A stretch of 64,000 nt of DNA from Escherichia phage vB_EcoP_PhAPEC5, in sequence record NC_024786.1. The stretch is one strand, 5' to 3'. Under the pieces are notes generated by a model, which saw only the letters and a list, made by a program, of their open reading frames with translations, ran no database searches and had not been told where the DNA came from. The position numbers and the translations under genes were made by a program. Shown here in pieces: positions 4,896 through 60,768 of the stretch. Each line of letters begins with the position of its first letter. The first letter of the stretch is position 1.

Positions 4896-4909
4896 TTACA
4901 GGTACTCTT

Positions 4910-27452: not shown

Positions 27453-27526
27453 GTCCGCTTAGCTTAGACTGGGAAAGCAACCGACTAATAATCGGAAGGT
27501 CACTGGTTCAAATCCAGTAGTGGACA
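27453..27526 (+). tRNA. tRNA candidate (74 nt; anticodon loop CTAATAA, apparent anticodon AAT)
   Basis: Manual cloverleaf: acceptor GTCCGCT/AGTGGAC (7 bp, one G-T), U8, D-stem GCTT/AAGC with GG in D-loop, 4-bp anticodon stem CCGA/TCGG, 5-nt variable loop, T-arm ACTGG-TTCAAAT-CCAGT, discriminator A. Confidence 0.45.
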
Positions 27527-27756
27527 CCCATTCAGCAGTAACATAGTCCTGATTGCATAGCACTCTAAAGACAACACTGGTAAGACAGTCCAGTGGCTGC
27601 TAATGTATTGTTATTCCCCTCGACGGGAATTTCGCTAGTGAAGGTAACACTTAAAAATCCAAACCCACGTCTTACTACTATCGGGCTATCAACCCACGGT
27701 CGCTTAACCCTATAGTGGTAGTAGTTTGACGGCCTGCCTCGTTGACTGCGTTAAAG

Positions 27757-31900: not shown

Positions 31901-34900
31901 GTAAGGAAGAACGACCCTGTGCATCAAACTCAATGTTGTTAGCACCCATGATGGTATCGAACTTCTGCTGTGCATAGTAACGGTCAGCAGGGTTAGTACT
32001 ATCCGGGTCAGCCATGAATGATTCAACGGTCAGGTTCTTGGTAACATGTGCATAGTATTCCTGTGCACGAGAAAGAGCAGCCGGACTAATAGCAGCTTCG
32101 GTAGCCAAAGCAGCAACGATATTAGTGAACAGGCGTTGTTCCTGCATATTCATAGTGAAACCATGAGCCTGAACATCACGGGTTACTTTAGTAGCATTCA
32201 CTACTGCATCAGAGAACTTACCTTTACGAATTACTTGCTGTACTGGTTCTGAACCAATGTAGTTAGTAATCAGCTTATCAAAGGTCTTCCCTAGCTCTTC
32301 CAGACGATTATTGTCACCATATGCTTTGTTATGGAACAAGGTAGTGTCTTTGGATACAGCAGCAGTAGGAGCCTGTCCACGCATAACTACTGAGGAGTTA
32401 AACAGTAATCCTGAGAACATATCATCTGCATTAGCAGGAGCTTTCTTGCGACCAAATACCAGACGCTTGATTGCTTCATATACAGACTGAACCATAGTTT
32501 TCAGTGCTGTGGTCTTCTTCTGCTTACCAATCAGTTCACGGTTGGTTAAGCCCCAAGCCATGTACTCATTCAGTGCAGCAGCTTTAGCCATTGCTGGTTC
32601 AATGAAGCCATTAGACAAATGACCATTAATGGTATTGAGTGCATCAGCATATGCTTCACGTACTGCCGGAGATTCATCCTTAACATCCAGAGTACGGAAC
32701 TGGTTCATCAAGTCTTCAATATTCTGGACTGCTTCGTTAGGAGTACCCTCATAATGAGCCAGTACGGATTCAAAAGTAGAAGCATGTACCAATTCATGAA
32801 CCAGAGTCTCTAAGGAAGGGGTAACTAAGTAGATGGTCTTATCGTCGAAGTTAGTCCAGCCATATGCATTACCCGCTTCGGCAGCTTCAATATCTTCAGG
32901 TGCTGGGCGAGTAATGTTCTTCTCAATAGCGTAAGCATCCAGTTGAGCAGGAGTACCGTAAACAACCTTATAGTCTTTGGCAGCAAGGGAGTTCTGTACT
33001 TCTTTCAATACTGCCTGCTGTTCAGGAGACATCTCTTTAGCCAGCTTAGTGATAGCAGTATTGGACAGCAGACGTACACCAGACTTAAGTACACGACCAA
33101 CCTGTTCCATTGCCGGTACTTCTTTCACTGGTTCTGCTTTAGCAGCACGCACTGCATCACGTCGCTTGTTTAATTCAGCATCAAACAGTTCATTCAGCTT
33201 AGCTACTTGCTGGTCTACCGTCAGACCTTCCAGAGAGATTTTACCGTTGTTCACGTAAGGAGCACCCACAGCAGCCATCTGGTCAACAGTGGTCTGTACC
33301 TGGTTCATTACTTTGTGGCGAATATCTACACCCAGCGCAATGTTACGCAGGTTACGTTCAATCTGTTCAGCACCTACACGTAACAGGTCATCGGTAGCAC
33401 CTTCACGCTGGTCATATTCCAGAGCAGATTTAGCGATAGCCTGTTTGGTTTCATCAGACAGTTTGCTGAAATCTACATTCTTCATGAACTTAGCATAGGA
33501 GTCATAAACATTCTTGATAGGGTTCCCCTGCCAAGAAGTGTATACAGCCTCGTTAGCTTTACGACTTGCATCAGTGATGTCATTGATACCAATGTTCATA
33601 CCATCAAAGATTTTCAGGGTATTCTTCGGAGCACCTTTCATAGTAGAAAGGGTCTGCATCATCATGCCATCACCAGTGCCGATGGTCATAAATGGAATAC
33701 CTGCAACACCTGCCTGAGAAGGAGCATAGATGCTCATTGGCACACGCATACGGTCATCTAAGTTGGTAGCCAGTACTTGGTTAGCAACATCAGTATTCTC
33801 ACTACCAGCAATGTAGAAAGTCTGTGAACCAGTCTCAATCATTGGAGCCAGCGGAGATAATGATTCCTGGATTTCATTCAGTTCTTTCTGAGTTAAGAAA
33901 TCACCCTTCTTCCAGGTTGGGTCTTTTTCTTTTTCTGCCAGCTTAGCCTGTACTGCTTGTTGGAACATATCCTGCAATACCAGAGACTGAATCTGGGTAG
34001 CCTTCTGCAAGTTCTCAGTAGAGTGCATCAGACCATCGCCAACAGTATTCTGAATACCAGTACGCATTGGTTCAACGAACAGGTGGAGCATGTTCTCTTG
34101 TAAGTTCTTCAGGGCATTACCGGATACGGTAAATTTCTGAGGGTCTAACTTACCAGTCAGAGCACCATCTACTTGCTGAATAGACAATTCACCTTTACGC
34201 ATAACTGGAACATTGCCAGTCAGTGCTTCCATAGAAGTAAGGAAAGTATCCAGCATTGCCTGAGCATCAGCTTCAGACGCAGCCTCCTTACCAAACATTG
34301 CCATAGCTGGGGAAATGCTAGGGTCAGCAGCCCGTGCTTGCAGAACGTCACTGAAGCGTTCGTAGATGGTGTCAGTAATTGCACTAACCATCTTGCCAGC
34401 AATACCACGTGCACCAGAACCATAGATGGTAATGGTAAGTGGGTTCTTAGCGATACCACGTTTCAGGTCCAGAGTACCGTCTTCATTCAGGTTAAAGTCT
34501 TTAATGAACAGGTCCATTATCTTCTGGAGATGATTCATCTGGCTCATAACAGGAACGTTGTTACGGTAAGTAGTACGTAACTCATTCAGTGCTTGTTGAA
34601 GACCATTGGTAGATGCTTCATACAGGTCAACACTGTCATCCTGTGAACGATGTTCGTTCATAGTCTTACCGGCTTTACCGAAGAACAGACCACCTTTAGC
34701 AGTATTCTTAATCCAGTCTGGGGTGAACTTACCACCAGTCATTAATACCATTGCGTTAATTGGGCCGTTGGTTACACCATCAGCTTCAACGTACAGTGGG
34801 GTATTAAAGTTGGCACGGTCATCGCTGTTCAGGTAACGGGCATATTCCATCAGAGCCATGAGAGCTACGAAGGATTTGTCACCACCCAGGGAGGTCTTAA

Positions 34901-37900
34901 GAATATCTACTGCATCAGCAGGCAAGTGACCAGACTTATCAAACTCAACCATCATATCAACAGCAGGTTTCAGATTACCTTCCAGAGCCTTGGTCAGCTT
35001 TTCAGACATAGCTTCACGGGACATGTTATGTACCTTGATACCTAATGCCTGAGCCAGGCCTACCTGGAAGTCAGAGAACGCTTGGCTGTTTTCATTACTC
35101 AAGTCGATAGTAGAGAAGGTCGGCAGAATTGCTTCACGAACCAGTTTACTGGATTGTGGGTTATTCTTACCAAGCATCTGCATACGACCTACACGGGTCA
35201 TGTTGTAACCGTAGTGAATAGGTGTATCCAGACCAGCTTCTTGTTCCTGTACCTGATTAATTACACCGAACAGGGAATCATATGCCATAGACACAGACAG
35301 GTTTTTACCTTCCAGTGACTTAGCAGTGTTCACGTTCAGCAATTCAGGATTAAGAGTACCAGCTCCCATCAGCTCCAGAATATTGTCACGGCCCATTGCT
35401 TCATAGAAGTTAACCATCGGCATGTGCACACGGAACTCAGTAGCCTGTTCGGCTTTCAGAGCAGCTTTCTGTTCTGGGGTATTCTTAACAGCAGGGTTAC
35501 GCAACTGAGTTTGAGCCACGGAAGGAATGTCATCACCAAAATACATTTTCTCTTCTGGTTCTAAGAGGACAGCTTCCTCAATAGCAGTAGGGAACTTGTT
35601 AATGGCATCGTTATCATCCAGCTTCTCAATAGTATACAGGCCAACAGTCTTATTGGAGTCTGGGTCAATCTCAGACACATCCAGCATAGACTCTTTAACT
35701 TCACCCATCTCAATGAGGGAAGACAGAATCTCTGTAGCCATTGCCATAGGAATACCCTTGGTATAACCCAGTGGTGCATTAGGGTTACGATTCAAACCCC
35801 AGTAGGATTCAATCTTCTGAGCCAGTGAGTTAGTAGCTTCAACCAGAGTCTGGGCATTCTCAAACTCAGCCAGAATACCTTCTGGTAACAGAGATGCTTC
35901 TACACCAGTAATAGCAGCTACGTCTTTCATATCTTTAACGGCAGCATTCTGTGTAGCAGTCAGTCGCCATTGCAGTCCAGCAAGTACAGCAGTCTCTAAC
36001 AACTGGTCATTGAACTTAAAGGTATCTCCGTCTTTCTCTACGATGTTAAGTAACTTACCACCTACCCAACGGTTAGCTTCAGTACCTTCTGCAAAACGTT
36101 TACCAACATTCTTATTAGCAAGGAACTTAGCCAGTCGCTCAGACAGAGTAGTCTTCAGAGTTTCCCCAAAGTCCATCAAGTCCTGATAACGTTTCATCAC
36201 ATCACTAGTGAGAGCGTTATTTTCTTTTTGAGTGAATGCTTCAAAGCGAGCAGCAGAAGAGAGTGCTTGCTTAATATCAGCTAAAGGAGATTCAGAACCA
36301 ATGGTACGAGACTTAGGTTCCTCTGGTAAGGCAAATGCTTTCAGGAACTGGTTCGGTGTCTTTTCATTGTTATAGACAGGGAACACTGTTTCCATTTCAG
36401 AAAGAGGTTTGCCACCCACTGTATATTCTGCTTTCAGCTGAGCCAGTGATACTTCATCCTTCTCCACGTTGTTAGTGTTACGACCAGAGGTATCTACACC
36501 AACCAGAATCTGTGCATTATTAGCTTCAACGAAAGACTGAACAGTATTGAATTGTTCAGCAGTCAGCTTCTGATTATCAAACAGTTGCAGAGATACGAAT
36601 GGTTGCTCACTACCTTTGTAGAAGGTAGCACGTACAGCACCTGTATCCAGAGACATGTCACGATAGCCATCATGACCAAATACGTCAGACAGGCTGATAT
36701 GGTCACCATTAGAACCAACCACAGTACCATCAGCAAACAGCCATGGACTCTCTCTACGGTCACCATACTTATTAAGAGTTTCCTGTGAAATAGTATTTTC
36801 TTTCACATAAGCATCTACTGTTTCAGATTCAGTAGTAGAGACTTCTTCTGCTTTTGGACTAGTCTCCTTAGTAGGAGCAGTCTTATTTTCTACCACAGGT
36901 TTAGCTTTAGGCTGTACAGTAGTAGTGTCCTCTTGCACTGGTGCAGGAGATTTATCAACCCGATTCACTGGTTCATTAGTCTGTTGAGACTGAGTGGCAT
37001 CAAGACCACCTTGACGGAACTCTTTAACTACCTGGGCAGCTGGCTTGTTCAGACGTGAATCTAACGAGGTAACTTTCACATGAGAAACATTAAGCTCCGG
37101 GTAAGCCGTAGCAAGTGCATTAGCAATATCAGCTACGGTCTTGGCTTCCAGTCCTACTTGCTGGGCAAACTTAACAGACTTGGTATCGTAAGGATTGACA
37201 CCGAGGCCAGTACGACTACGTACCCATTCACGGGAAGGCGAGAGAGCCTGATAATGAACAGACTTATTCTTATCCGCATTCCCCGAAATCAGATGCTCAT
37301 TCAACGCTCCGACCTTATTCTGCATGTGCTGGGCGAACTTCATAAAGTCGCTCAGATAAGCGGAGGCCAAATCGAAGTTACCAGAGTTATACGCAGAACG
37401 AATGCGTTTCGCATGTTGCAACGCAGAGTACTGTCCTTCATTAGAACGAGACTCATCGGTTTTAATCTGTTTACTAACAATATCTTGAGGACGTAAGCCT
37501 AGTTCTTCTGCTTTAGCGTCGAACTCACGTGCACCCTGTAACAAGGCAGCAGCAGATTGCAGGGCAGCACGTTGACGATTCCCCAGTGTAATCTTACCTT
37601 CACTTGCATGCTTCAGAACCATGTTCACTGAGTCTGCATCCAGTACTTCTGGAGATACATCAGCAGCCATAGCAATATTGTTTGCTTGGGCTTGATTAGC
37701 TTCTTCAGTAGATTTCAGCTTACCTGCTTCAGCCTGTTCCTGAATCATGGAATGGATGGCACGGAATGCACGAAGTACTTTCGGGGTATTCTGTACGTTA
37801 GCCATCAGGCCGGAGAACTGGTCAACAATTGCAGCAGCAGGAGAACCTTGTTCCAGATTAGCCAGAGCACCTGGGTCACGGTTAATGAAGCTATCCATAG

Positions 37901-39728
37901 ACATGATGTTGTCATACATCTGGATTGCAGCTTCCATTTGAACGTTAGGGTCTTCAGCAGTATTAACCAAGTCAGCCATCTTCTGAATAGCTTCTACACG
38001 GTTAGTGGAACCAGAAACAGCTTCACGGATTGCCGGATTAGCTTGTTCTAATTCTACTGGGTCAAAGTTCATTGCCTGTGTTAAGTCAGAAGCATATTGG
38101 GTAGCAGCAGCTTTCTCTTCAGGAGAGATGTCCATTGCGTCTACTGCTTCCTGTACAGTCGCCTGTGCTTGCTCTGCTTGAGCAGTAGCTTCCTGTGCAG
38201 CAGCACTAACCGTAGCATCAGCTACAGGGGATGCCTGTTCATTACGCTTAGCAACTTCTTCTCCACGTTGAACCAGGATGTTAGTAATAGGGGAGGCAGC
38301 TTTTGCTAATGCATTACCAACCAGAGAAGCACCAGCCAGGGTAGTACGTACAGTAGGAGCAACGGCAGCACCAGCAGCTTTAACAGTTGCACCAGGAGCT
38401 TGAGCAACTCCAGCACTACCGAAGCCATAGAGTGCACCAAGACCTGCTTGTTCACCGACCCCTTTGAGGGTATCACGGGATGCATCAACATTTTCCTTGA
38501 TTGCAGTGTTCTGTGCGAACTGTCCGAAGCCGGATTGAATACCTTCTTCAACTGTTTCACGCAGCATATTAGAACCAGCACCTGCCAGTGAACCTACCTT
38601 AAGTGGGTTAAGTTCAAAGCGAGATACCAGTGGACCGGTAGCAGCAGCAACTGGAGCAGTTAAGCCAGCAGCAGTGATACCTGTTTCAGATGCAGTCTGA
38701 CGTCGTGCTTCATCAGGAGATAAACCATCAGCAATATGCTGTTGGTAAACAGGAGACTTACTTGCCAATTCTTGATGGGACATCTTCATGATTTCAGAAG
38801 CAGTCTGTTGGTATGCACCACCAGCTTCCATGCCACCGATTGCTACAGCAGGTGCAGCAACACGACCAGCAGAGAGTGCAACCTGTGCAGGACGTGAACC
38901 TAACCCAGCAGCTAAGGTAATACCCTTAACAGCTTTGTCACCACCTACCATTACTTTACCAAGTGCAGATACACCACGAATAAGTGGACCACCAGTAAAG
39001 AGGGAACCAATACCTTCGCTCAATCCGTCGGAAGCAGCCATACCATTATCAAGTGTATTAGCAACAGAATCAAAAGCGTCACGACCAATGCGAGACAAGG
39101 AGGCAACCAAATCACTCTCCCCGTTTTTAATGTCTTCTTCGTAGAGTTTCTGGTTCTCTTGTGCAGTAATCTGGTTCTGATTCTGAACAACTTTACGGGT
39201 AGCAGTCAGTGCATCAGACTGTAGATTGTGTACACCTTCATTCAACCAATCCATCCCGGAAGCAATGGATGCCCCGGCATTATCATTGACCAGACCTGTG
39301 CCAAGAGCAGCAATGCCCCCAAGGGTATTAGCAACACCAAGACCAACACCAGAAAGAGTATCGCCAAATGCTTCTGCGTTAGTACGTTGTTTAGATAAGT
39401 CCTGACGTACAACATCAGCAGCATTAGCTCGGCTATTAATAATCTGTAGACCTTGCTCATTACCATACTTATTAAGGATTTCTAATGGGGAGGCTTGTGT
39501 GAAATCAGCCTGAAGTGAACCTGGTTCGAATGCACCGATTCCAAGATTACCTACTCGTCCAGTCTGGAGATTGTAAGCATTCTCTGGGGTTAATTGGAAA
39601 GGGCTTTGCCCTTGTGCAGCTTGCTTCTGGGAGGTTGCAGTAGAGACATCGACTTGCTTAGCATTAGTGATGCTGTCTGCGAAACCTGCCAGACGGTCAA
39701 ATGTTGACATAGCATGTTTCCTGTTCAA
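28995..39728 (-). CDS. virion-encapsidated RNA polymerase (N4 gp50-like giant vRNAP)
   Basis: Single 3,577-aa ORF at the start of the minus-strand late block; size and position match the approx 3,500-aa N4 vRNAP. Confidence 0.85.
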   Translation of the reverse strand: MNRKHAMSTFDRLAGFADSITNAKQVDVSTATSQKQAAQGQSPFQLTPENAYNLQTGRVGNLGIGAFEPGSLQADFTQASPLEILNKYGNEQGLQIINSRANAADVVRQDLSKQRTNAEAFGDTLSGVGLGVANTLGGIAALGTGLVNDNAGASIASGMDWLNEGVHNLQSDALTATRKVVQNQNQITAQENQKLYEEDIKNGESDLVASLSRIGRDAFDSVANTLDNGMAASDGLSEGIGSLFTGGPLIRGVSALGKVMVGGDKAVKGITLAAGLGSRPAQVALSAGRVAAPAVAIGGMEAGGAYQQTASEIMKMSHQELASKSPVYQQHIADGLSPDEARRQTASETGITAAGLTAPVAAATGPLVSRFELNPLKVGSLAGAGSNMLRETVEEGIQSGFGQFAQNTAIKENVDASRDTLKGVGEQAGLGALYGFGSAGVAQAPGATVKAAGAAVAPTVRTTLAGASLVGNALAKAASPITNILVQRGEEVAKRNEQASPVADATVSAAAQEATAQAEQAQATVQEAVDAMDISPEEKAAATQYASDLTQAMNFDPVELEQANPAIREAVSGSTNRVEAIQKMADLVNTAEDPNVQMEAAIQMYDNIMSMDSFINRDPGALANLEQGSPAAAIVDQFSGLMANVQNTPKVLRAFRAIHSMIQEQAEAGKLKSTEEANQAQANNIAMAADVSPEVLDADSVNMVLKHASEGKITLGNRQRAALQSAAALLQGAREFDAKAEELGLRPQDIVSKQIKTDESRSNEGQYSALQHAKRIRSAYNSGNFDLASAYLSDFMKFAQHMQNKVGALNEHLISGNADKNKSVHYQALSPSREWVRSRTGLGVNPYDTKSVKFAQQVGLEAKTVADIANALATAYPELNVSHVKVTSLDSRLNKPAAQVVKEFRQGGLDATQSQQTNEPVNRVDKSPAPVQEDTTTVQPKAKPVVENKTAPTKETSPKAEEVSTTESETVDAYVKENTISQETLNKYGDRRESPWLFADGTVVGSNGDHISLSDVFGHDGYRDMSLDTGAVRATFYKGSEQPFVSLQLFDNQKLTAEQFNTVQSFVEANNAQILVGVDTSGRNTNNVEKDEVSLAQLKAEYTVGGKPLSEMETVFPVYNNEKTPNQFLKAFALPEEPKSRTIGSESPLADIKQALSSAARFEAFTQKENNALTSDVMKRYQDLMDFGETLKTTLSERLAKFLANKNVGKRFAEGTEANRWVGGKLLNIVEKDGDTFKFNDQLLETAVLAGLQWRLTATQNAAVKDMKDVAAITGVEASLLPEGILAEFENAQTLVEATNSLAQKIESYWGLNRNPNAPLGYTKGIPMAMATEILSSLIEMGEVKESMLDVSEIDPDSNKTVGLYTIEKLDDNDAINKFPTAIEEAVLLEPEEKMYFGDDIPSVAQTQLRNPAVKNTPEQKAALKAEQATEFRVHMPMVNFYEAMGRDNILELMGAGTLNPELLNVNTAKSLEGKNLSVSMAYDSLFGVINQVQEQEAGLDTPIHYGYNMTRVGRMQMLGKNNPQSSKLVREAILPTFSTIDLSNENSQAFSDFQVGLAQALGIKVHNMSREAMSEKLTKALEGNLKPAVDMMVEFDKSGHLPADAVDILKTSLGGDKSFVALMALMEYARYLNSDDRANFNTPLYVEADGVTNGPINAMVLMTGGKFTPDWIKNTAKGGLFFGKAGKTMNEHRSQDDSVDLYEASTNGLQQALNELRTTYRNNVPVMSQMNHLQKIMDLFIKDFNLNEDGTLDLKRGIAKNPLTITIYGSGARGIAGKMVSAITDTIYERFSDVLQARAADPSISPAMAMFGKEAASEADAQAMLDTFLTSMEALTGNVPVMRKGELSIQQVDGALTGKLDPQKFTVSGNALKNLQENMLHLFVEPMRTGIQNTVGDGLMHSTENLQKATQIQSLVLQDMFQQAVQAKLAEKEKDPTWKKGDFLTQKELNEIQESLSPLAPMIETGSQTFYIAGSENTDVANQVLATNLDDRMRVPMSIYAPSQAGVAGIPFMTIGTGDGMMMQTLSTMKGAPKNTLKIFDGMNIGINDITDASRKANEAVYTSWQGNPIKNVYDSYAKFMKNVDFSKLSDETKQAIAKSALEYDQREGATDDLLRVGAEQIERNLRNIALGVDIRHKVMNQVQTTVDQMAAVGAPYVNNGKISLEGLTVDQQVAKLNELFDAELNKRRDAVRAAKAEPVKEVPAMEQVGRVLKSGVRLLSNTAITKLAKEMSPEQQAVLKEVQNSLAAKDYKVVYGTPAQLDAYAIEKNITRPAPEDIEAAEAGNAYGWTNFDDKTIYLVTPSLETLVHELVHASTFESVLAHYEGTPNEAVQNIEDLMNQFRTLDVKDESPAVREAYADALNTINGHLSNGFIEPAMAKAAALNEYMAWGLTNRELIGKQKKTTALKTMVQSVYEAIKRLVFGRKKAPANADDMFSGLLFNSSVVMRGQAPTAAVSKDTTLFHNKAYGDNNRLEELGKTFDKLITNYIGSEPVQQVIRKGKFSDAVVNATKVTRDVQAHGFTMNMQEQRLFTNIVAALATEAAISPAALSRAQEYYAHVTKNLTVESFMADPDSTNPADRYYAQQKFDTIMGANNIEFDAQGRSSLLPTFVALAMVSEDVRNVLVDIPVMKADKQSGNTVDAMLTNIGTAAMASLNARVAGDTKATNVQEGMDALAQTIMQTSLNAQSFYDSVATPSGNAIDRANQYLVDSIDALSTRALESAREVAANTKNPLVKGAAHAAQLVAAIATEKNGAIVAEGVMAAMNQGKVWQPFHDLVNDLTGRTKSNASVYDLIKAVRAQVQADRQQFREHLPTTIASKFSRKLTNDEWKAMHTGMGKTDLAVLRDTMSLAEIRDLLSDQKIVDREVNKLEADLQKQAGRNWPLINRKSKQLAQYMINGTVGNNLLRNATAISRMLGERQAARSTVDVAQLDKLITLYALEAMNKSDREMLSSLAQTEVDGMDFATSYLVGQRKDEMAKAKSDMRATLNQYKGHIPSENKQGVNLIVAEDNQFADLIEKSYVRLGTYQGSSANRGPARSYYFAPVQAQAPFSQGILQNVRDTAGGVDLGTGFTMGSMVAGRITDKPSVDRITKALARGERGNEPLLPVYDDKGNVVAYEQSIDPNMLKHIEGENHLARAIGIWRGRQVEEAKAQRFNDMLIENLHSMYENDIKMSASNKSQYVNLLGSKLDPVTADALKLMNSETRQKAESLFGEGELWVRRDMLNDALGYRAASVGDAWSGNSRWSPETLDTFKKAMLGVFGNRAYKYTMGGENLVQNLVKEAKTLIVVKSVVVPAVNFLANLYQMVARGVPVKNIAKSIPQKTAEINQYLKSRLRQVDAEAELRAATNPNQIRKLKAEIQSITDSHKRMSIWPLLEAGEFSSIADAGIGRDDILITEGKLHEYMDKLADKLPKSVRTAGRYALITKDTALFQGIQKTVEYSDFIAKAIIYDELTQRKGKTREEALGRVTEEFVNYDRLPGRFRGYMESVGLMWFYNFKIRSAKVAVSMIRNNPVHAAMAMLAPTPTMFGNVGLPIQDNIFSIAAKGSLDYSWGFGQGLRAHNLNPWMNLVN

Positions 39729-51612: not shown

Positions 51613-52134
51613 CTATTCAAAAAGTTTACGGTCAGCCTGAATTTGTTTACCCAACTCAATTAGTTGGTTGTCACGGAGTCTAACAGTTGCCCGGAGTTCT
51701 TCAACCAAACGTCTGCCTTCTTCAAGACTGTTGTCGAGTCTGGCTGCATGGCTTGCAAGACTTCTGCACTCAAGGGTTCCGGCTTCGGCTTGACGTTGAT
51801 ATACCGATGCTCGTCTTTCAGACTGTTGCATCCGGCTGTCGTAATCACTGCTAACGCGAGCAAGCTCGCTTGCGTAATTACTCTCAGCCGTCTGCAACCG
51901 GGAAGTGAGTAACCCGACTTCATAACTATGGTTTCTTTGGAGAGCATTGTATTTGTCCTGTAGTTTTTGTGTTGCCTTCAGGTCTTCAACCTTTTGGGCA
52001 TCCCACTTCTTTTGAACAGTAGACTGTCCATTAGAATTGCCCCAAAAGTAAATGGTGGCCCCAAGGACCACCACCAGAAGATAAGGCCAACCTTTAGAGA
52101 TTAGCATCTTCATTACATGCCTCCAGTGGTACAT
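51613..52134 (-). CDS. Rz-like i-spanin
   Basis: N-terminal TM segment ([16 protein letters not shown]) followed by coiled-coil-rich periplasmic domain; adjacent to endolysin; contains embedded lipoprotein ORF. Confidence 0.6.
51660..51923 (-). CDS. Rz1-like o-spanin (lipoprotein, embedded in Rz in an alternative frame)
   Basis: Signal peptide with lipobox-like TAGC ([14 protein letters not shown]), Pro-rich short mature part; entirely inside the Rz ORF. Confidence 0.55.
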   Translation of the reverse strand: MKSGYSLPGCRRLRVITQASLLALAVITTAGCNSLKDEHRYINVKPKPEPLSAEVLQAMQPDSTTVLKKADVWLKNSGQLLDSVTTN

Positions 52135-53045: not shown

Positions 53046-53296
53046 TTACCAAAAATTCCAGCACCAGCAACTTTATGTTTAATGGTGATAAACTCTTCGA
53101 TGGTAGGTTCAGACTTAGTGATGCTCTCCTCTACCCGTTTAAGTCGGGTACTAAGGTCGCCCATAGACTCACTTAGCTTTTTAATAGACTCTTCCATTTT
53201 CTCCCTTTCTCCCGATTCACGAGTTTGGTTTTCGAAAATGTTTCTCAGTCTCTCTTCGAGTCTGGCTAGAGTTACGTTATCCGGTTCATTTCCCAT
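52964..53296 (-). CDS. coiled-coil protein with C-terminal TM segment (holin/antiholin candidate)
   Basis: N-terminal charged coiled-coil, C-terminal GAGIFGKWVWAGAGAIIGVLAAA TM-like segment; overlaps the next ORF by about 80 nt. Confidence 0.3.
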   Translation of the reverse strand: MGNEPDNVTLARLEERLRNIFENQTRESGEREKMEESIKKLSESMGDLSTRLKRVEESITKSEPTIEEFITIKHKVAGAGIFGKWVWAGAGAIIGVLAAARREIFAWFAG

Positions 53297-53553
53297 AGGG
53301 GATTTCTCAGGTTAGTTAAGTCAGGATTGACTGAAACAGTCTACATAAAGGATTGTTTGCGGTACAACAAAAACCCACCCCTACAGCCTAGTTGGCAGGT
53401 TGGAACCTGAAACATCGAGTAGCAATTGGGTCAACAGCAGTGAACACCAAAACAGTAAAACCCACATGGAGGCAATGAGCCTACGATGGGTCCCGATAAT
53501 TCAATACCCTTCTGATGATAAAACTAGCCCCACTTCGGTGGGGCTAGTTTTAA

Positions 53554-55689
53554 TTAAATCAATCCGTAAATGGTATTGTGTATTACGACGCCACCAACAA
53601 CAGAGGAAACGTTGAAATTAATTTCAGCTTTGTAAGCTCCTTGCGGAACGCAATCCACCAAAGCATAAAAGTTGAACGTGTTCCCTACTGGGATGATGTA
53701 CCCTATGGAATCTGCTACAGCATTCCCCAGCTGGTCCAAGAATCTCAATGACACCAGGGTGGTTGTTGTACTCTTAGACCAAAAACCAAATTGAAAGTAA
53801 CGCCCAGGTTCACAGTCAATAATTGTTTGGGTGAAGTTAGCTGCTGCGTCAACCGATGGCACAGATAAAACAAAAGAAGTTGAAAACATTAAATCATTAG
53901 GGACATCGTTTCCTACAGTAGCAGTGACAATGCCGGTTCCGGTTTGCGAGAGTGTCCAGTTAGATATGTTATTAAACTGCCCAGACCCATTACTAATACT
54001 ATTAATATAGGGGCTTACAATGCTTCCTAGATTCCAGTTAGTTGTGATGAATCCTGCACGGGGGAAGCACCCACGTGATGTAATCTTCTTACTAGAGCCA
54101 CCTACTAACTGACGGGTTGGAAATCCAGTACCTACAGTAGTGTTACCATACAGTGGAAGTGAGCAGTTATTAAAACTAACTACCCCGTCACCGTTACTAA
54201 CAATAGGCACTGTACTGTAGCCTTCCGGAAGCAGAAGCGTAGAATCTTTAATACTGAGTCGGGAGCTTCCATTCACAGTAAAGACTACAAAACTCTGCCC
54301 AGGTTGATACTCAATATTACCGTTAGCAAACACCAAGGTAGCATTATCACCCAATGCCATTACCGGGTCGAAGTAGCCTGCCTTTTTACCTGCTGGCAAT
54401 GAGCATGAATCAAAGATGAACTGCCCATTCTCAAAGGTAAATGGACCTCCATTATCAACCATCCAGCAGTGGTTGAACTTTATAACCTCACCTGCATTAG
54501 CCGGGGAATTAAAGATTACAGAGTTAGTAAAACTACGAGAAATGATGCACTTATCAAACAGGACACGATATGCATTATCTTTAAACTCAATACCCGCAGT
54601 AGATATAAACCCGCAGTTAGATATACGTAATTCTGCTACCTCCCTTGAGGTGCTACCACCCAAACACATCTTTCGAGCACCTTTACCTACAAAGGAGATT
54701 CCTGTTAATAAGGCGGTAGCATTAATGGCATCACGGGCTGTGTAATCTGTATTAGAGTTGGTTACGATTAAGTAATACTCCCCTGTTAAACCTTCCACTT
54801 CCGTAAGGGTACACTTATTAGCTCCTACTAAAGATCCCTTAGCCACATCCAGTACGATAGGTGCACTAATGGTCCCTGAGGTAGGTACAAGACAGTCGTA
54901 ACCGGCAGAGTTTACCTTGTTAATGAACGGAGCAATATCCCCCGTACCGGTATACCCAGCATCATACACGTCCACGGTGCCGTTGAAGAATTTCCTTTTC
55001 CATACCACCCCACTTCCTAAGAAGGTAACAATATTGTCTATAGTGGTATCCTCACTAACAGCTACCATAATACCACCACCAAGATTAAACCCGCTCACAT
55101 ACGAATCAAGGATTATGGAATCGCCGATTGATCCTGATAATGATGATAACTCAGAAACCGATGATGCAGTTCCTATATAAGATAAGCCATTTGGTTTATT
55201 TAAATCACTCCTAAGAGCGTCAACACCAACACTAACCCATGCTCCCAGATCAATTCCGCCAGTTGAGGATGGGGTAGTCCCAGCAGGAACCTCTTTAGGC
55301 AGTGCCCCATCCCAACGGTATTTACCATCAGTAAATACAACCAGTTCATTCTTAGCATTAACAGTTACGCCAGTAGCAAATGTATCGGGTAAGGTTACAT
55401 ACTCTTCCCGGGTAACAGCTAGAGCACCTAAGTCCACACTACCAGCAGAATGTACTAATATACCGGAAGTACTAAGACTTACAGCAGTAACCCCTGAATC
55501 AATGTCAGCAGGCAATGAGTAAGCTAGCTGAGTCGTCTTGTCATAAATAACTTTATAACCACTAAGCAGTGCACCAACCGAGAAGTAAACAACTTCGTTC
55601 TGCTTAACACCAAATTTACGGGCAATGGCTTGCTTATTGGTGAGAATACCAGTAGAGCCTTTACCGCCTTGTGAGAATAACTCGTTCAT
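53554..55689 (-). CDS. tailspike/tail fiber protein with beta-helix-like repeats
   Basis: 711 aa; Gly/Ser/Thr/Asn-rich with repeated hydrophobic beta-strand rungs (NCGFISTAGIEFKDNAYRVLFDKCIISRSF...). Confidence 0.55.
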   Translation of the reverse strand: MNELFSQGGKGSTGILTNKQAIARKFGVKQNEVVYFSVGALLSGYKVIYDKTTQLAYSLPADIDSGVTAVSLSTSGILVHSAGSVDLGALAVTREEYVTLPDTFATGVTVNAKNELVVFTDGKYRWDGALPKEVPAGTTPSSTGGIDLGAWVSVGVDALRSDLNKPNGLSYIGTASSVSELSSLSGSIGDSIILDSYVSGFNLGGGIMVAVSEDTTIDNIVTFLGSGVVWKRKFFNGTVDVYDAGYTGTGDIAPFINKVNSAGYDCLVPTSGTISAPIVLDVAKGSLVGANKCTLTEVEGLTGEYYLIVTNSNTDYTARDAINATALLTGISFVGKGARKMCLGGSTSREVAELRISNCGFISTAGIEFKDNAYRVLFDKCIISRSFTNSVIFNSPANAGEVIKFNHCWMVDNGGPFTFENGQFIFDSCSLPAGKKAGYFDPVMALGDNATLVFANGNIEYQPGQSFVVFTVNGSSRLSIKDSTLLLPEGYSTVPIVSNGDGVVSFNNCSLPLYGNTTVGTGFPTRQLVGGSSKKITSRGCFPRAGFITTNWNLGSIVSPYINSISNGSGQFNNISNWTLSQTGTGIVTATVGNDVPNDLMFSTSFVLSVPSVDAAANFTQTIIDCEPGRYFQFGFWSKSTTTTLVSLRFLDQLGNAVADSIGYIIPVGNTFNFYALVDCVPQGAYKAEINFNVSSVVGGVVIHNTIYGLI

Positions 55690-55738
55690 AACGACCTCTT
55701 TGTTTTTCTAGAAAACCCCTCAGAAGAGGGGATTATTT

Positions 55739-58450
55739 TTATCGTTCCCAAACTACATCGTAGTTAACTCCGTTGGTATTAAAGTCACCGGTGTATAAAA
55801 CTAGATTGTTAGCTGGAGAATTAAACCATGCAGCATTAGTACCAGAAGCGTTAACCAAAATCTGGTCAACAATTAGGGTAATGCTCATGTTTGTAGTACG
55901 GTTACGAATAGTTAACTTACGCACCATTGCAGGAATAGCAATTGTATTGTTAGCTGCACCATTGCCCACATAAGTCAATGTTCCATACTTCCGGGATGTA
56001 CTATTCACATCACTGATACCAGTCTCATTCAGTAACAGAAGACTGTTATTACTCAACAGCATATCTGAGTTTGTAATGGTTAATTTAGAAGCTAACTTGT
56101 TACAGTCCCCATAAGATTCTTGAATCTTGTTGTAAGTACTGATTGAGGCAGCAGCAACACCACAATCAATCTCACCAGCATTCATTAGGAACAACGTATC
56201 AAAACGAGCAACACCAGCAGCAGAGGCAGCAAGTACAACCGTCTTACCACGGAAGGTATCAATGAATACTGAACCAGTACGAACAGTGGCAGTGGTATTA
56301 AACGCACTAGCAGCTACCAGACGAAGTGCAACAGTACTCTCATGGTTCACAATGAAGTTAAATACCTGAGTACCACGGATAACACCATAACCCGAGCCAA
56401 TGTTAGAGCCATTATAGACGACAAGCATGTCGCGAAGGTTGCGTGCTTCAATACTATCCAACTGTTGAATATTAGAGCAGGCTACGTTCAAGCAAGCACC
56501 CAGTCTAACACCTGCACCAGAGTTATCACCAATAAACAGTAAGTCAGACATACGCCCAAAGTTAGATGAAAGCATATCAATAAAGTTTACTGTCTGTGCT
56601 GGTAACCAAGGAGCAGAGCCAGAACCATACCAACGCTGACAAGCGATGGCTGGGTCAGTTGGGCTAGTAACGCCAGCATCCCATTCAAAGCGAATACCAG
56701 ACATATCAGCAAACTGGGCAAAACGCATACTCCACCAGATACCATCAGTTGTGTTCGAAGGAACACAGTTGATAATTGTTGGAGTAGAAGAAGCAGAACC
56801 TGCACCCCAAATCTGTACGTTTGATAAGTCTACCCCACGCAACTTAATAGCATTAAAAGTATGACGTCCAGCAGGAATGACAATTCTAAATGTTGATTGG
56901 TCATTCATAGAGTTTCTTCCTTGAAGGGAAGAAATATGACCGAGTGCATCGGATAACTGAGCAAAATCATAATAAGCAGTATTAGCATCATTGCCTACAA
57001 TGAACGAGGTATACAATGTAGCTTCAGCCCAATCTGCTGTCAAAGAAGCATTAGCAGACAAGGTGATAGGAAAAGCCCCGGAACCAACATAGGTATAAAA
57101 TTTACCATCTGCTTGATTCCATACAGCATCCCGTTTTTTATTAACAGTTGCCCCTTGTTTAAAGGAACCGTTTACTAAATTATACCCTTCATGCGCCAGT
57201 ACTTTTCTATATAGTTCAAAATCTGTATTCAAATAATCTTGAACAGATATACCCGCAGAGCTATTAATAAAAGAAGCACCGGTAGTTAAAGCTAAATTCT
57301 CGCTTGAATTTGGTACAGGTAACAAATCAACAGTGATGTTACCTGGGGCGTACGTTAACTGACCATTACTGACAGACTGGATGTACACGTTAGTCGGTAG
57401 AACGGGCAGACCGTAAGACTTCTGTTCACTAACAGAATAAATAACCTTCTTATTATTCAGGAACTGGGTAGTATCTGTACTAAGAATTACCTCACTATCC
57501 TTAACGTTAGTAGCACGAGCAACTTCCTGAAGAGTATGGTCTGGTGCTTCAAGTACCCGAGCTTCACCACCAATTTGTACAATCAAACGGTCATTGGTTG
57601 CCAGTGGTTCTGTAAGAAGAATACGTTGGTTATCCGGGTCAGCAGTATACGACTCAGTAGTTAATCCTTTATACAAACGAAGACCATTCTTATACACAGC
57701 CGGGATAGACTGGAAGGTATAAGGAATAGCAATAATCTGTTCTCCACCTACAGCAGCTCCATTGTTGTATAACCAGTTAATCTGAACCCAGTCATTAACA
57801 TTAGGGTTATCTGGTAAAGCAGGAACCCCAGTCAGAAGGAATACTACTTCATCACCTTCTTCCAGAGGCTGAGCCAGAGTTACGGACAGATTGTCTACGT
57901 TAAAATCAAAGCCACGGCCTACATACTGCATGTCACCATTAATAATAATGAAAGGTACACCTACCGTATTATCCGGTACGTTGATTGTAGTTTCCCCACC
58001 AGCAGCAGAACCATTTGCGTATACCCATGGAATGTAAGCACCTTCTCCGGAGGAAGTACTACCACCATTAGAACCAGATGTAGCAACAGTAATCCATGAA
58101 CCGGTTGCAGTAGTATCGTTAGGCAGAATACCTGTATGATCTCCTTCCACATACAAGTAGTCAGTAACCTGACGATCACCTGCACGAGAGAAGCCATAGA
58201 TACGTGCATATTTAGCTTTAGTAGTTAATGCTTTAAGTTCTGCCTCAGACTGTACGCCAAGTACCATTCCATACTGGTTAAGGAAGTCATAGATAAGTTT
58301 CAGGTTACCCAAATTGCAGTACACAGTACGAACCACATGGTAAGCATTACCAAGTAACGCATCTACCATTGGGTCGTTGGAACTGTTCTGGCAGTAAGGA
58401 TTGGTCCAATCCTGATTTGCATCGAAGGGGGTATGTGCGTTCATCGCCAT
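55739..58450 (-). CDS. tailspike protein with beta-helix-like repeats
   Basis: 903 aa; Asn/Gly/Thr-rich repetitive rungs; adjacent to the other spike gene. Confidence 0.5.
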   Translation of the reverse strand: MAMNAHTPFDANQDWTNPYCQNSSNDPMVDALLGNAYHVVRTVYCNLGNLKLIYDFLNQYGMVLGVQSEAELKALTTKAKYARIYGFSRAGDRQVTDYLYVEGDHTGILPNDTTATGSWITVATSGSNGGSTSSGEGAYIPWVYANGSAAGGETTINVPDNTVGVPFIIINGDMQYVGRGFDFNVDNLSVTLAQPLEEGDEVVFLLTGVPALPDNPNVNDWVQINWLYNNGAAVGGEQIIAIPYTFQSIPAVYKNGLRLYKGLTTESYTADPDNQRILLTEPLATNDRLIVQIGGEARVLEAPDHTLQEVARATNVKDSEVILSTDTTQFLNNKKVIYSVSEQKSYGLPVLPTNVYIQSVSNGQLTYAPGNITVDLLPVPNSSENLALTTGASFINSSAGISVQDYLNTDFELYRKVLAHEGYNLVNGSFKQGATVNKKRDAVWNQADGKFYTYVGSGAFPITLSANASLTADWAEATLYTSFIVGNDANTAYYDFAQLSDALGHISSLQGRNSMNDQSTFRIVIPAGRHTFNAIKLRGVDLSNVQIWGAGSASSTPTIINCVPSNTTDGIWWSMRFAQFADMSGIRFEWDAGVTSPTDPAIACQRWYGSGSAPWLPAQTVNFIDMLSSNFGRMSDLLFIGDNSGAGVRLGACLNVACSNIQQLDSIEARNLRDMLVVYNGSNIGSGYGVIRGTQVFNFIVNHESTVALRLVAASAFNTTATVRTGSVFIDTFRGKTVVLAASAAGVARFDTLFLMNAGEIDCGVAAASISTYNKIQESYGDCNKLASKLTITNSDMLLSNNSLLLLNETGISDVNSTSRKYGTLTYVGNGAANNTIAIPAMVRKLTIRNRTTNMSITLIVDQILVNASGTNAAWFNSPANNLVLYTGDFNTNGVNYDVVWER

Positions 58451-59151
58451 CCTCGTTGTTCAAATTTAGTTTCGGTAATTGAAATACTTCCATTAGCCAG
58501 GTCGTAATCAACAACCTCACCACAGATGCTTTCATACGTTTGCAGATACTCTGCTGCTTTAGCGTTAGCTTCTGGAGTATTCAAACCAGTGTGGTAACGA
58601 TAACCCACCCAGTTATGAAGTGCTGTCATTAGCGTATCAGCTAAGTCAACTTCCTGTTCTTCGTCACCCGTAAGCACTGGGTGCTTAGCTTGATACGTTA
58701 CGTTAAGTGCCTCGAAGTGTCGAGGTCGCATACACTGAATAGTATCAGGTCGTGGGGTGAAGATAGCATGAGGGTCTGAATCGTCGTTAAGTCTACGTCG
58801 ATTCCCAGAGTTATCAAACACATTTAAGATTTTAATAACATCATCCTGGAAAGGTTTCATGAACCCATCCATGATGTAAGGATACTGAATCTCAAGAGTA
58901 GGCTTAGTAAATCTGGAGTAAGCATATTTGGATTGAAGAGGATAATCAGTACGTCCTTCCTTCATCTCCACAATGCAGCTATTAGTCTTAAGAGGGAAAC
59001 GACTATGCAGTCGTACCAGCCCCTCATTAATAGCTGCCAGTATCTCCGGCTTACTATCCGGTTCAATACCCAGCCTGTCATCCGTGACTGCACCAGTACC
59101 CTTCAAGGTACTTAGTGCCAAGCCACGATATACTTCCGATAATTTCTGCAT
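58441..59151 (-). CDS. virion protein (hypothetical)
   Basis: 236-aa ORF between terminase and tailspike genes. Confidence 0.35.
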   Translation of the reverse strand: MQKLSEVYRGLALSTLKGTGAVTDDRLGIEPDSKPEILAAINEGLVRLHSRFPLKTNSCIVEMKEGRTDYPLQSKYAYSRFTKPTLEIQYPYIMDGFMKPFQDDVIKILNVFDNSGNRRRLNDDSDPHAIFTPRPDTIQCMRPRHFEALNVTYQAKHPVLTGDEEQEVDLADTLMTALHNWVGYRYHTGLNTPEANAKAAEYLQTYESICGEVVDYDLANGSISITETKFEQRGWR

Positions 59152-59157
59152 GGTTCC

Positions 59158-60768
59158 TCACACAATGTATGAACGTAGTGGGTTAACACTATCTTCTTCT
59201 TCCTCATCCCACATCGGGTCACCCTTGTTATCCACCATAGTCATACCTGCTTGTGGCTTCCAAGGATTGAGATAACCCAGCATGGAGATAGTATCAATAC
59301 AGTCATCCTTACCTTTGATTCCATTAATGGTAGCTAGTTTAATCTGGCCCATGAACAGACCCATAATAGTTGTATCTCTCAACTCCTCTGGGAAGTACAT
59401 CTTACCAACCTTGAACCATGGAACTACCAGGTTAAAGCGTGACAGCTTAGAGGTTACAGGACGGATGCCTGGCTTACCACCCTCAGAGGATGCAAAGTTA
59501 AAGAAGACATTACGGTTAATCATTTCTTTCTGAAGAAGTGAGATGAATCCACCCTGCTGCCCTGTGACTTCAATACCAACATTTTGTGGTTGGTATTCTT
59601 GAACCAGACGGAACAAGTCATCAAAGTTTTTATCCATAAGCTGACGATTAGCCACACCGTCAACCCAGAACCAATCTCCATTAGAACTATAAGCCCAAAC
59701 TGATATGACACTGTAGTCACTGGTCTGTTTCTCCGAGGTAGCAAAGTCGGTCGTAATGTAATAGTTGTAGCAAGACTTCATCCTCAATAGCTGTTGTCTG
59801 CTGTACCATTTAATCTCACTATCCTGAACAAGACGTTCATCTTCAGAACTAATACGAAGCATAAGTTCCTGATAGAAGCCAGCCAACTTACCGGTCTTAA
59901 CTGCCATGTCATATTGGGCTTTTATGTAGTCATATGAAAAACGGTCATCCCATGCACCCTGAAACTCTTCCCTACTACAGGGAAACTTCTCACACACAGG
60001 CCATACGTTGACATCCCATGCACCAGACTCAACTGCTTCAATAATGATGTCTTCCTTATTAAATGGAGTACCATTGAAGATTACTTTACGACGTGTTGGG
60101 TCAAGAGCATGGTTCACACCTTTATAGACAGTATCCTTAATAGCTTCCATACTCGTCTTAGAGTTAGCATCACCATCACTAATCAAGTCATCCAGTACAC
60201 AGAGCGTCGGACGTTTACCATATATCTTCGTACCACGAAGACCTGTCTTAGCACCAAACAACTTAACACCCAGTCGATGTCCTTCTGCATTACGGAACTC
60301 TAACAGGTTATCTGTAAAGGTAGCTTCAGGTATCCACTGTTGAAGGAACTCACTATTCTTGTATCGGAACTCAATGTTCTTACGTGCAGACTTAGCACCG
60401 TTATCCATTGAGTCAGATACGTAAATCATCCCTTCTACCTTGCCCAGACTTGGTAAGTGCCCAAACACTGCCAAGAACAAAGTAAAGTATTCCATGAACA
60501 CAGCAGTCTTACCTGCACCACGGAAACACAGGTTAACTACATACTGGTTCGGGGTAATCATCTTATCCAGCATCTTCAGGTGAACCGGGGGTGTTTTGTT
60601 GGATTCACCTTCTTTGCCATTAACCAACTTAATAAAGTTAGCAAAGGTAAGAGCAAACTGACTGGGAACGTAGTTAGAAGAGTTAAGGTGGGAGTAATCC
60701 ACCTGGTCTAGCCATTCATCTAGTTCCTGTTTAATTAACTCAGACATCTGTAATGTCCTCATCTGCAC
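59158..60768 (-). CDS. terminase large subunit
   Basis: Walker A-like FRGAGKT, Walker B-like LCVLDDLISDGD, C-terminal nuclease-like region; 536 aa. Confidence 0.8.
   Translation of the reverse strand: MQMRTLQMSELIKQELDEWLDQVDYSHLNSSNYVPSQFALTFANFIKLVNGKEGESNKTPPVHLKMLDKMITPNQYVVNLCFRGAGKTAVFMEYFTLFLAVFGHLPSLGKVEGMIYVSDSMDNGAKSARKNIEFRYKNSEFLQQWIPEATFTDNLLEFRNAEGHRLGVKLFGAKTGLRGTKIYGKRPTLCVLDDLISDGDANSKTSMEAIKDTVYKGVNHALDPTRRKVIFNGTPFNKEDIIIEAVESGAWDVNVWPVCEKFPCSREEFQGAWDDRFSYDYIKAQYDMAVKTGKLAGFYQELMLRISSEDERLVQDSEIKWYSRQQLLRMKSCYNYYITTDFATSEKQTSDYSVISVWAYSSNGDWFWVDGVANRQLMDKNFDDLFRLVQEYQPQNVGIEVTGQQGGFISLLQKEMINRNVFFNFASSEGGKPGIRPVTSKLSRFNLVVPWFKVGKMYFPEELRDTTIMGLFMGQIKLATINGIKGKDDCIDTISMLGYLNPWKPQAGMTMVDNKGDPMWDEEEEDSVNPLRSYIV

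Follow-up and report, generated by a model that had tools for sequence, protein, structure and literature searches.

The two adjacent large genes at positions 53,554 to 58,450 of the window, the 64,000-nucleotide stretch of Escherichia phage vB_EcoP_PhAPEC5 (NC_024786.1) that was analyzed, most probably code for the two receptor-binding proteins of a branched complex in this Gamaleyavirus, an N4-like podophage of the G7C type. For this two-spike explanation as a whole we estimate a probability of about 0.85. The arrangement is ordinary and well described, and is in essence already known. A first-pass annotation had taken the pair, of 711 and 903 amino acids, for tailspikes. Both open reading frames were found as described, and their domain homologies and a predicted fold bear out this assignment. 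The two genes and their upstream neighbor are:

55739..58450, minus strand: RBP1, gp66-type primary tailspike PhAPEC5_68 (903-aa maximal open reading frame; PHROG 12242 'tail protein')
53554..55689, minus strand: RBP2, gp63.1-type secondary tailspike PhAPEC5_67 (711 aa; PHROG 4217)
58441..59151, minus strand: gp67-like adaptor or virion structural protein (Pfam SU10_adaptor, E 7.9e-6; PHROG 2125)

Neither of the tailspike reading frames is a chance product. The richness in glycine, asparagine, serine and threonine that had been noticed earlier was confirmed: these residues make up 37.0% of the 711-aa and 33.7% of the 903-aa protein, compared with 21.4% for the portal and 24.4% for the large terminase within the window. 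The deposited protein AGV99351.1 (PhAPEC5_67) is identical to the 711-aa product and AGV99352.1 (PhAPEC5_68, 901 aa) to residues 3-903 of the 903-aa frame. A second ATG of the RBP1 frame is located at 58444, preceded by GAGG 6 nt upstream, and forms an ATGA overlap with the stop codon of the gp67-like gene, by which the two genes are translationally coupled. Overlap, GAGG motif and deposited start taken together, RBP1 probably starts at 58444 and consists of 901 residues. A fusion or misassembly as the origin of the 903-aa frame was rejected, since the identical 901-aa protein is encoded on five further contigs of ~71 kb. The PhAPEC5 backbone shares ~94% identity with Gamaleyaviruses, and in PhAPEC7, EC1-UPM and St11Ph5, too, the RBP1 gene is flanked by the genes of the gp67-like adaptor and the secondary tailspike.

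The N-terminal half of RBP1 was divided into the following segments:

58046..58450, minus strand: aa 1-135, N-terminal virion-attachment (anchor) domain (PDB and PHROG matches; comparison with G7C gp66)
57815..58045, minus strand: aa 136-212, first T4 gp10-like XD domain, XD2-like (internal repeat and CBA120 matches)
57551..57799, minus strand: aa 218-300, second XD domain, XD3-like, presumed RBP2 docking platform (internal repeat and CBA120 match)
57311..57538, minus strand: aa 305-380, head domain TD1/D1, closing the conserved part ahead of the breakpoint (similarity to RBP2 and 5w6h)
57026..57310, minus strand: aa 381-475, linker and second head domain, where the swapped cassette begins (weak Tail_spike_N match)

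Residues 1-381 matched Moo19 gp82 (PDB 9d80) with an E value of 1.8e-156, and the N-terminal ~380 residues matched B2 gp49 (PDB 9d83) with 2e-142. Residues 3-79 were additionally matched by PDB 9lc0 ('60 kDa protein') and by PHROG 29955 ('appendage'). The anchor is 75-91% identical to those of PhAPEC7, EC1-UPM, Bp4 and St11Ph5. In G7C the N-terminal 134 residues of gp66 bind the particle (PMC6517402). By analogy with G7C, Moo19 and B2, RBP1 would be held on the virion as a trimeric spike, fixed to the tail by its N-terminal roughly 135 residues. The XD domains form an internal repeat (aa 140-208 versus 224-295, E 8e-12). Residues 124-210 matched the XD3 region of CBA120 TSP4-N (PDB 7rej, residues 253-335; E 8e-13), and aa 140-379 matched the XD2-XD3-TD1 region of CBA120 TSP2 (6w4q, residues 19-244). 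For the XD2 domain of G7C gp66 the role has been stated as unknown (PMC8825819). The head at aa 305-380 showed 32% identity to aa 20-92 of RBP2 and also matched residues 4-76 of 5w6h. Within the next segment, Pfam PF18668 aligned to aa 423-467 with an E value of 0.0013, under the curated cutoff, and about 90 distant tailspikes share just the stretch of aa 381-475 with RBP1.

RBP2, in turn, begins directly with the TD1-TD2 head, and neither an anchor nor an XD region precedes it:

55225..55689, minus strand: aa 1-155, head (docking) domains TD1 and TD2 (PDB matches; Pfam Tail_spike_N, PF18668, aa 91-155, E 5e-23)
53557..55224, minus strand: aa 156-711, body of the TSP4 type with neck, D3', beta-helix D3 and D4, predicted to depolymerize the O78 O-antigen (CBA120 TSP4 identity)

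The head was matched by CBA120 TSP1 (4oj5, aa 1-172, E 4.6e-73), G7C gp63.1 (4qnl, aa 1-174, E 7.6e-70) and B2 gp48 (9d84, E 8e-67). An SGNH esterase like G7C gp63.1 was considered for RBP2 and rejected. The similarity to 4qnl stops at aa 174 and the body aligns to CBA120 TSP4; thus, RBP2 is the positional and anchor homolog of gp63.1 but not an esterase. RBP2 aa 20-711 and CBA120 TSP4 aa 346-1036 (PDB 5w6h) are 77.9% identical over 692 aa, and RBP2 is 95.8% identical to PhAPEC7_70 over all 711 aa. A published classification assigns a protein to the O78 subtype if it shares at least 30% identity, across its receptor-binding domain, with an O78 tailspike verified by experiment (PMC10408124). 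The 77.9% identity to TSP4 places RBP2 in this subtype, to which the PhAPEC7 RBP2 has been assigned as well (PMC10408124). TSP4 cleaves the O78 O-antigen (PMC8825819), and spotting on O78 is acquired when TSP4 aa 480-1036 are transplanted (PMC9965104). The same RBP2 module is carried by phages with O78 hosts, namely EC1-UPM (O78:K80) and AVIO78A (O78). From this sequence relationship RBP2 is predicted to bind and cleave the O78 O-antigen of E. coli, which would allow passage through the LPS layer of O78 strains, typically avian pathogenic ones.

XD3 of RBP1 is probably the site at which the RBP2 head docks, so that RBP2 would be attached to the virion indirectly and the two gp10-like XD domains of RBP1 would serve as the branching platform. 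This proposal follows the homologous systems. In G7C, binding of gp63.1 requires the XD3 domain of gp66 (PMC8825819), and gp66 and gp63.1 make a two-branched complex via XD3 (PMC8825819, PMC6517402). The proteins gp48 and gp49 of phage B2 co-purify as a complex (PMC11654681); PDB 9d80-9d84 were linked to that publication via protein names and sizes. Alternatively, each N-terminus might sit on the tail directly, as in some dual-spike podophages, giving two specificities and no branching. The TD1/TD2 head is present in both proteins and such heads can contact the particle in single-spike phages. We nevertheless judge this arrangement to be very improbable: the 711-aa protein starts at its head domain, with no anchor and XD region, RBP1 carries two XD domains, homologous heads dock on XD3 in G7C and CBA120, and the homologous pair of Shigella phage B2 is purified as a single complex. 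Moreover, ECBP1 retains an anchor-only RBP1 of 375 aa beside an O78-type RBP2, which is sensible only if RBP2 needs the anchor.

The C-terminal part of RBP1 comprises two segments:

55991..57025, minus strand: aa 476-820, receptor-binding module of subtype 'X33' with a right-handed parallel beta-helix
55742..55990, minus strand: aa 821-903, C-terminal all-beta domain (strands in the structure model)

A beta-helix fold had been proposed for both spikes from composition. For the RBP1 C-terminus it was obtained in a confident predicted model, and the RBP2 body is homologous to that of CBA120 TSP4, for which a beta-helix structure has been solved. In the RBP1 model a low-confidence loop at model residues 337-343 precedes a C-terminal domain of eight strands (model residues 347-427, pLDDT around 90), perhaps the counterpart of D4 in the CBA120 tailspikes. 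A Foldseek search of BFVD with the X33 model returned tail proteins of the 'pectate lyase superfamily', all with low TM-scores of 0.43 or below, which fits the beta-helix assignment but does not strengthen it. Residues 476-903 matched no Pfam family even at E <= 1, and the body matched no PDB chain either as a single sequence or as a 16-member profile. X33 is a member of the beta-helix class at the level of the fold and an orphan at the level of sequence. It has already been catalogued in the literature as an orphan subtype without an assigned receptor.

The X33 sequence family is rare, with 13 clusters among 1.84 billion protein representatives. Its DNA had no blastn match in 5,426 complete E. 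coli genomes, no relatives appeared in a scan of GTDB species representatives, and IMG/VR contained one distant locus with 28% identity (L002). Consequently, these searches offer no clue to a host or serotype for RBP1. Five different phage anchors carry the module; one of them is of the RBP2 type and belongs to a contig resembling Salmonella phages. Six residues are invariant across 16 members, D582, R633, Y679, H703, R710 and D731 (protein numbering, equal to alignment position +475); these polar residues lie inside the helix rungs and are kept in members down to ~27% identity.

The RBP1 beta-helix would recognize, and probably degrade, a surface polysaccharide. Rarity, the missing sequence link to enzymes, absence from the 5,426 E. 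coli genomes and occurrence on five anchors leave room for a further, tentative reading. X33 (aa 476-903) could possibly be the founding characterized member of a new polysaccharide-depolymerase family, with a receptor perhaps beyond the usual E. coli O-antigens, e.g. a capsule or some glycan that Salmonella has as well. In that case PhAPEC5 would have an additional host range, or the ability to strip capsules, that has so far gone unrecognized.

Two other roles of the module were weighed. It might act as an adhesin that binds a glycan and leaves it intact, or be a spare part of no relevance on an O78 host, with infection proceeding via RBP2 alone. No glycosidase or lyase family is matched by sequence, the beta-helix matches include the non-enzymatic adhesins PfbA and Vag8, and some Gamaleyaviruses such as ECBP1 exist without the module. 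To our knowledge, the function of the own domain of G7C gp66 has no settled answer either. We consider this role rather unlikely, because active sites typically show the kind of pattern that the six invariant residues form in the rungs, the model has mostly depolymerases as its nearest structural neighbors, and on T7-type, P22-type and P2-type anchors the module alone serves as the receptor-binding domain. Second, RBP1 might strip a capsular (K) or other exopolysaccharide from the same cell whose O78 O-antigen is attacked by RBP2, and the host range would then not be widened. This assignment is unlikely as well: EC1-UPM, whose host is O78:K80, has a different RBP1 module, and the RBP1 subtypes assigned so far in Gamaleyaviruses are O-antigen types, for example O45 for PhAPEC7.

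Recombination at the junctions between anchor and specificity domains had likewise been suggested, and the alignments agree with it. DNA similarity to PhAPEC7, Bp4, EC1-UPM and St11Ph5 breaks off at aa 376-382 of RBP1, and similarity to PhAPEC7 picks up again at 55731. Two hairpins were read from the sequence:

55716..55731, minus strand: terminator-like hairpin between the genes, CCCCTC-TTCT-GAGGGG followed by TTTTC, 3' boundary of the RBP1 cassette
53519..53547, minus strand: Rho-independent terminator after RBP2, CTAGCCCCAC-CGAA-GTGGGGCTAG followed by TTTTAT

The same intergenic hairpin has been reported as a recombination boundary in the phages of the G7C set (bioRxiv 10.1101/542787), and the PhAPEC7 equivalent of the post-RBP2 hairpin is annotated as a terminator. 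Specificity would evolve by cassette swap at fixed junctions: past aa ~376-382 of RBP1, at the hairpin that separates the genes, behind the head region of RBP2 and at the terminator that follows the RBP2 gene.

The scientific addition of this analysis is small, since earlier publications describe the branching of gp66 and gp63.1, the TSP4-type module for O78 and the exchange of cassettes across phage genera. In practical terms, the RBP2 module points to strains of O78, the main avian pathogenic serogroup, as the expected targets of PhAPEC5. Specificity can be re-engineered where the breakpoints lie, at aa ~376-382 of RBP1 and between the head and body of RBP2, and these are natural splice sites for chimeric spikes. 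For X33 there is now a beta-helix model of good confidence together with a handful of invariant residues, which makes a search for its receptor and tests of its mechanism straightforward.

Among cultured phages the nearest annotated relative of X33 is the tail fibre protein of Vibrio phage VP-HS15 (A0A6B9LHD6). It shows 31.7% identity over 83% of the C-terminal query, belongs to the same beta-helix family and was the top BFVD fold match. In contrast to RBP1, it comes from a phage of another host genus and has another anchor; the protein is uncharacterized and so gives no hint to the receptor. PhAPEC7 carries gp71 as an RBP1 of subtype O45 and gp70 as an RBP2 of subtype O78 (PMC10408124). Its RBP1 anchor is 75% identical to that of PhAPEC5 over aa 3-379 and the flanking DNA 90-96%, whereas its O45-type module and X33 have no detectable similarity from aa ~377 to the end.

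CBA120 TSP4 (ORF213; PDB 5w6h) is the O78-specific tailspike of a Kuttervirus myophage and shares the D1-D2-D3'-D3-D4 body with RBP2. It is a primary spike, anchored in the baseplate and equipped with an N-terminus of its own (AD-XD1-XD2-XD3, ~340 aa), whereas PhAPEC5 carries the TSP4-type body on a secondary podophage spike of the docking type. G7C, with gp66 and gp63.1 (Prokhorov et al. 2017; PDB 4qnl), belongs to the same genus as PhAPEC5 and has the same gene order of terminase, gp67, gp66, gp63.1 and lysis genes. Both phages have the RBP1 anchor with two XD domains, a homologous RBP2 head and the intergenic hairpin. Both specificity modules differ: the C-terminus of gp66 is unrelated to X33, and gp63.1 is an SGNH esterase deacetylating an O22-like O-antigen, whereas RBP2 possesses the TSP4-type beta-helix body. 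The Shigella phage proteins Moo19 gp82 and B2 gp49/gp48 (PDB 9d80-9d84; PMC11654681) are homologous to the RBP1 N-terminus and, in the case of B2 gp48, to the RBP2 head. Moo19 gp82 is one fused protein and B2 gp49 is anchor-only (410 aa). The Moo19 and B2 spikes carry esterase bodies, whereas RBP1 and RBP2 of PhAPEC5 each have a beta-helix body of their own.

The ORF listing placed two adjacent reading frames at 53554..55689 and 55739..58450 on the minus strand, as the first-pass annotation had proposed for a pair of beta-helix tailspikes. Their products are termed RBP2 (gp63.1-type secondary tailspike) and RBP1 (gp66-type primary tailspike), respectively. The gene order on the minus strand is:

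59158-60768 (-), large terminase, first in the tailspike region
58441-59151 (-), gp67-like adaptor, between the large terminase and RBP1 genes
55739-58450 (-), RBP1, 903 aa as maximal ORF
49-nt RBP1-RBP2 spacer, carrying a hairpin
55716-55731, this intergenic 6-bp GC hairpin, CCCCTC-TTCT-GAGGGG then TTTTC
53554-55689 (-), RBP2, 711 aa
53524-53547 plus T-run (-), strong terminator after the RBP2 gene
beyond the terminator (-), two small gp63/gp62-like genes
next (-), lysis genes: GH108 endolysin, followed by Rz/Rz1 spanins
after the spanins (-), SU10-type portal

This layout is common to PhAPEC7, EC1-UPM, ECBP1, Bp4 and St11Ph5, and in St11Ph5 the two tailspike genes are annotated as gp66 and gp63.1. 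Across its backbone the window shares 92-95% identity with other Gamaleyaviruses (Schitoviridae; G7C-like N4-like podophages). The 173-aa Rz-like gene (51613-52134, -) encloses a 95-aa ORF (51660-51947, -) in another frame with a lipoprotein-like signal, a classic embedded Rz/Rz1 spanin pair; the St11Ph5 equivalents are annotated gp60.2 and gp60.1. Elsewhere in the window, ARAGORN predicted one tRNA-Ile, whose anticodon, AAT, is unusual (27452-27530, +). The ORF at 28995-39728 (-), 3577 aa long and starting with TTG, is the counterpart of what is annotated in relatives as the giant virion RNA polymerase, and the sign of the GC skew flips near 30 kb, at the switch of gene orientation.

The 711-aa product and GenBank AGV99351.1 (PhAPEC5_67) have the same sequence, and residues 3-903 of the 903-aa product are identical to AGV99352.1/YP_009055578.1 (PhAPEC5_68, 901 aa). 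Thus, both ORFs are real and not of chance origin, and the DNA is that of Escherichia phage vB_EcoP_PhAPEC5 or of an isolate that does not differ from it in this region. Gly, Asn, Ser and Thr together account for 37.0% of the 711-aa and 33.7% of the 903-aa product, compared with 21.4% of the portal and 24.4% of the large terminase, which bears out the richness in these residues noted initially. The RBP1 ORF contains two in-frame ATGs within 58441-58450. The second, at 58444, shares bases with the gp67-like stop codon (ATGA) and is preceded by GAGG at 6 nt, whereas the first directly adjoins GAGG. Consequently, the second ATG is the likely start, giving the 901-aa product as deposited. The ATGA overlap suggests translational coupling of RBP1 to the gp67-like gene.

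The domain homologies of both spikes were observed directly, as were their identities, predicted fold and breakpoints. RBP1 residues 1-381 matched two Shigella phage proteins solved by cryo-EM, Moo19 gp82 (PDB 9d80, E 1.8e-156) and B2 gp49 (9d83, E 2e-142), both from PMC11654681. Within this part, aa 3-79 resemble PDB 9lc0 '60 kDa protein' and PHROG 29955 'appendage', aa 124-210 the T4 gp10-like XD3 domain of CBA120 TSP4-N (7rej), and aa 140-379 CBA120 TSP2 residues 19-244 (XD2-XD3-TD1). An internal repeat was found (aa 140-208 vs aa 224-295, E 8e-12), and aa 305-380 are 32% identical to RBP2 aa 20-92. This organisation corresponds to the published gp66 plan of a particle-binding domain of ~134 residues, ~150 residues binding gp63.1, and canonical head and receptor-binding domains (PMC6517402; PMC8825819).

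RBP2 residues 1-172 resemble the head domains of CBA120 TSP1 (4oj5, E 4.6e-73), G7C gp63.1 (4qnl, E 7.6e-70) and B2 gp48 (9d84, E 8e-67), with a Pfam Tail_spike_N match at aa 91-155. Likeness to the G7C esterase ends at aa 174, and aa 20-711 are 77.9% identical to CBA120 TSP4 aa 346-1036 (PDB 5w6h). Judged by sequence, the RBP2 body is of the CBA120 TSP4 type and not of the G7C esterase type. [quoted passage not shown] Phage S117 given tsp4 forms plaques on E. coli O78 (PMC11414711), and grafting of TSP4 aa 480-1036, equivalent to RBP2 aa ~154-711, onto another phage's TSP4 led to spotting on O78 (PMC9965104). The RBP2 module also occurs at 77-79% identity in EC1-UPM (host O78:K80) and siphophage AVIO78A (host O78). 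PhAPEC7 RBP2, 95.8% identical to RBP2, was assigned to the O78 subtype (PMC10408124). From the TSP4 literature, the O78 hosts and this subtype we strongly infer that RBP2 is O78-specific.

One branched RBP1-RBP2 complex per tail position is the best-supported reading (probability about 0.85). By analogy with homologs, from which oligomeric state, docking, catalysis and substrate of both spikes are taken, an RBP1 trimer would be fixed to the tail through its N-terminus and an RBP2 trimer would dock with its head domain onto RBP1 XD3. The RBP2 beta-helix would bind and processively cleave O78 O-antigen, drawing the tail to the outer membrane, and the RBP1 beta-helix would recognise a second glycan. 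Independent attachment of both spikes to the virion is very improbable: RBP2 has no anchor, and in ECBP1 an RBP1 consisting of the anchor alone (375 aa) is retained alongside an O78-type RBP2.

Breakpoints were mapped by blastn against five Gamaleyaviruses. The RBP1 anchor is conserved up to aa 376-382, in agreement with the PhAPEC7 boundary tabulated as '376' (PMC10408124 supplement), and the remainder of RBP1 showed no similarity to these phages. DNA similarity restarts at 55710-55734, at the intergenic hairpin; for the G7C set this hairpin has been suggested to mark a boundary of recombination (bioRxiv 10.1101/542787). RBP2 shares only aa 1-24 with St11Ph5, and aa 1-116 (75%) and aa 203-711 (86%) with the Bp4/EC1-UPM/ECBP1 group; all similarity stops just past its stop codon, at the terminator. 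The recombination points suggested in the first-pass annotation are thus borne out, with junctions after RBP1 aa 376-382, at the hairpin, behind the RBP2 head region and at the terminator. The stretch 53146-53544, from the gp63-like gene to the RBP2 terminator, is a further variable spot beside the tailspike module. It is conserved with PhAPEC7, similarity is absent in Bp4, EC1-UPM, ECBP1 and St11Ph5, and at the equivalent position Bp4 has an additional ORF of 654 nt, encoded on the other strand. RBP1 gene completeness also differs among Gamaleyaviruses. The anchor-only ECBP1 gene (locus L007, 5663-6790) is like that of Shigella phage B2 gp49, and in Bp4 (locus L005, 4664-7386) two ORFs of 600 aa and 304 aa make up a split RBP1; the O78-type RBP2 is kept in ECBP1 and Bp4 alike.

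From aa ~377 on, no similarity of RBP1 to PhAPEC7 RBP1 was found. Residues 381-475 gave a weak Tail_spike_N match, and ~90 distant tailspikes have only this segment in common with RBP1. The body of the C-terminal receptor-binding module (aa 476-903) is rare: it accounts for 13 clusters (50% identity) in a set of 1.84 billion representatives, and only 9 proteins were recovered in a 5.8-billion-sequence search. Neither a Pfam family nor a PDB sequence match was found, even by a 16-member profile; blastn gave 0 matches in 5,426 complete E. coli genomes, none was found in GTDB species representatives, and IMG/VR held one distant locus. The best annotated phage relative is the Vibrio phage VP-HS15 tail fibre (31.7% identity). 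The AlphaFold model from 9 sequences was poor (pLDDT 64); that of aa 476-903 from 16 sequences (pLDDT 90.3, pTM 0.84) is a beta-helix, so the outcome that would have refuted the first-pass proposal, a predicted structure lacking this fold, did not occur for RBP1. Residues invariant in family members down to 27% identity include D582, R633, Y679, H703, R710 and D731. We consider it doubtful that the RBP1 head is non-catalytic or dispensable.

Homologues of the module occur on several other anchors; therefore, it is a mobile receptor-binding domain. One (P0003, 80% identity) is attached to a docking head of the RBP2 type. It lies in an N4-like contig obtained from a sequencing run (L003), whose closest relative is Salmonella phage vB_SalP_TR2; an 877-aa RBP1 is followed there by the 616-aa RBP2 bearing this body (1361-5896). 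Hence the module moves between spike positions, primary and secondary, and also across phage genera. Another (P0004, 59% identity) fills the slot for the tail fibre in a contig of a P2-like myophage (L004, 6001-7917), with the baseplate genes J and I upstream of it and a gene for a collar fibre downstream. Further homologues are joined to T7 tail-fibre, P22 head-binding and tail-collar N-termini. 'PhAPEC5_RBP1, YP_009055578.1' is listed as RBP subtype X33 without assigned serogroup (PMC10408124 supplement). By predicted fold the RBP1 head belongs with the beta-helix tailspikes, and in sequence it is an orphan; it is already catalogued as X33. That X33 represents a new family of depolymerases and has an unusual receptor is a speculative and somewhat improbable reading, and capsule instead of O-antigen as the RBP1 target is unlikely.

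G7C gp66/gp63.1 has the same architecture as the RBP1/RBP2 pair, and RBP2 belongs to the O78 type of PhAPEC7 and CBA120 TSP4. The system is within a known kind, and at most the RBP1 module is a new, uncharacterised member of a well-described system.
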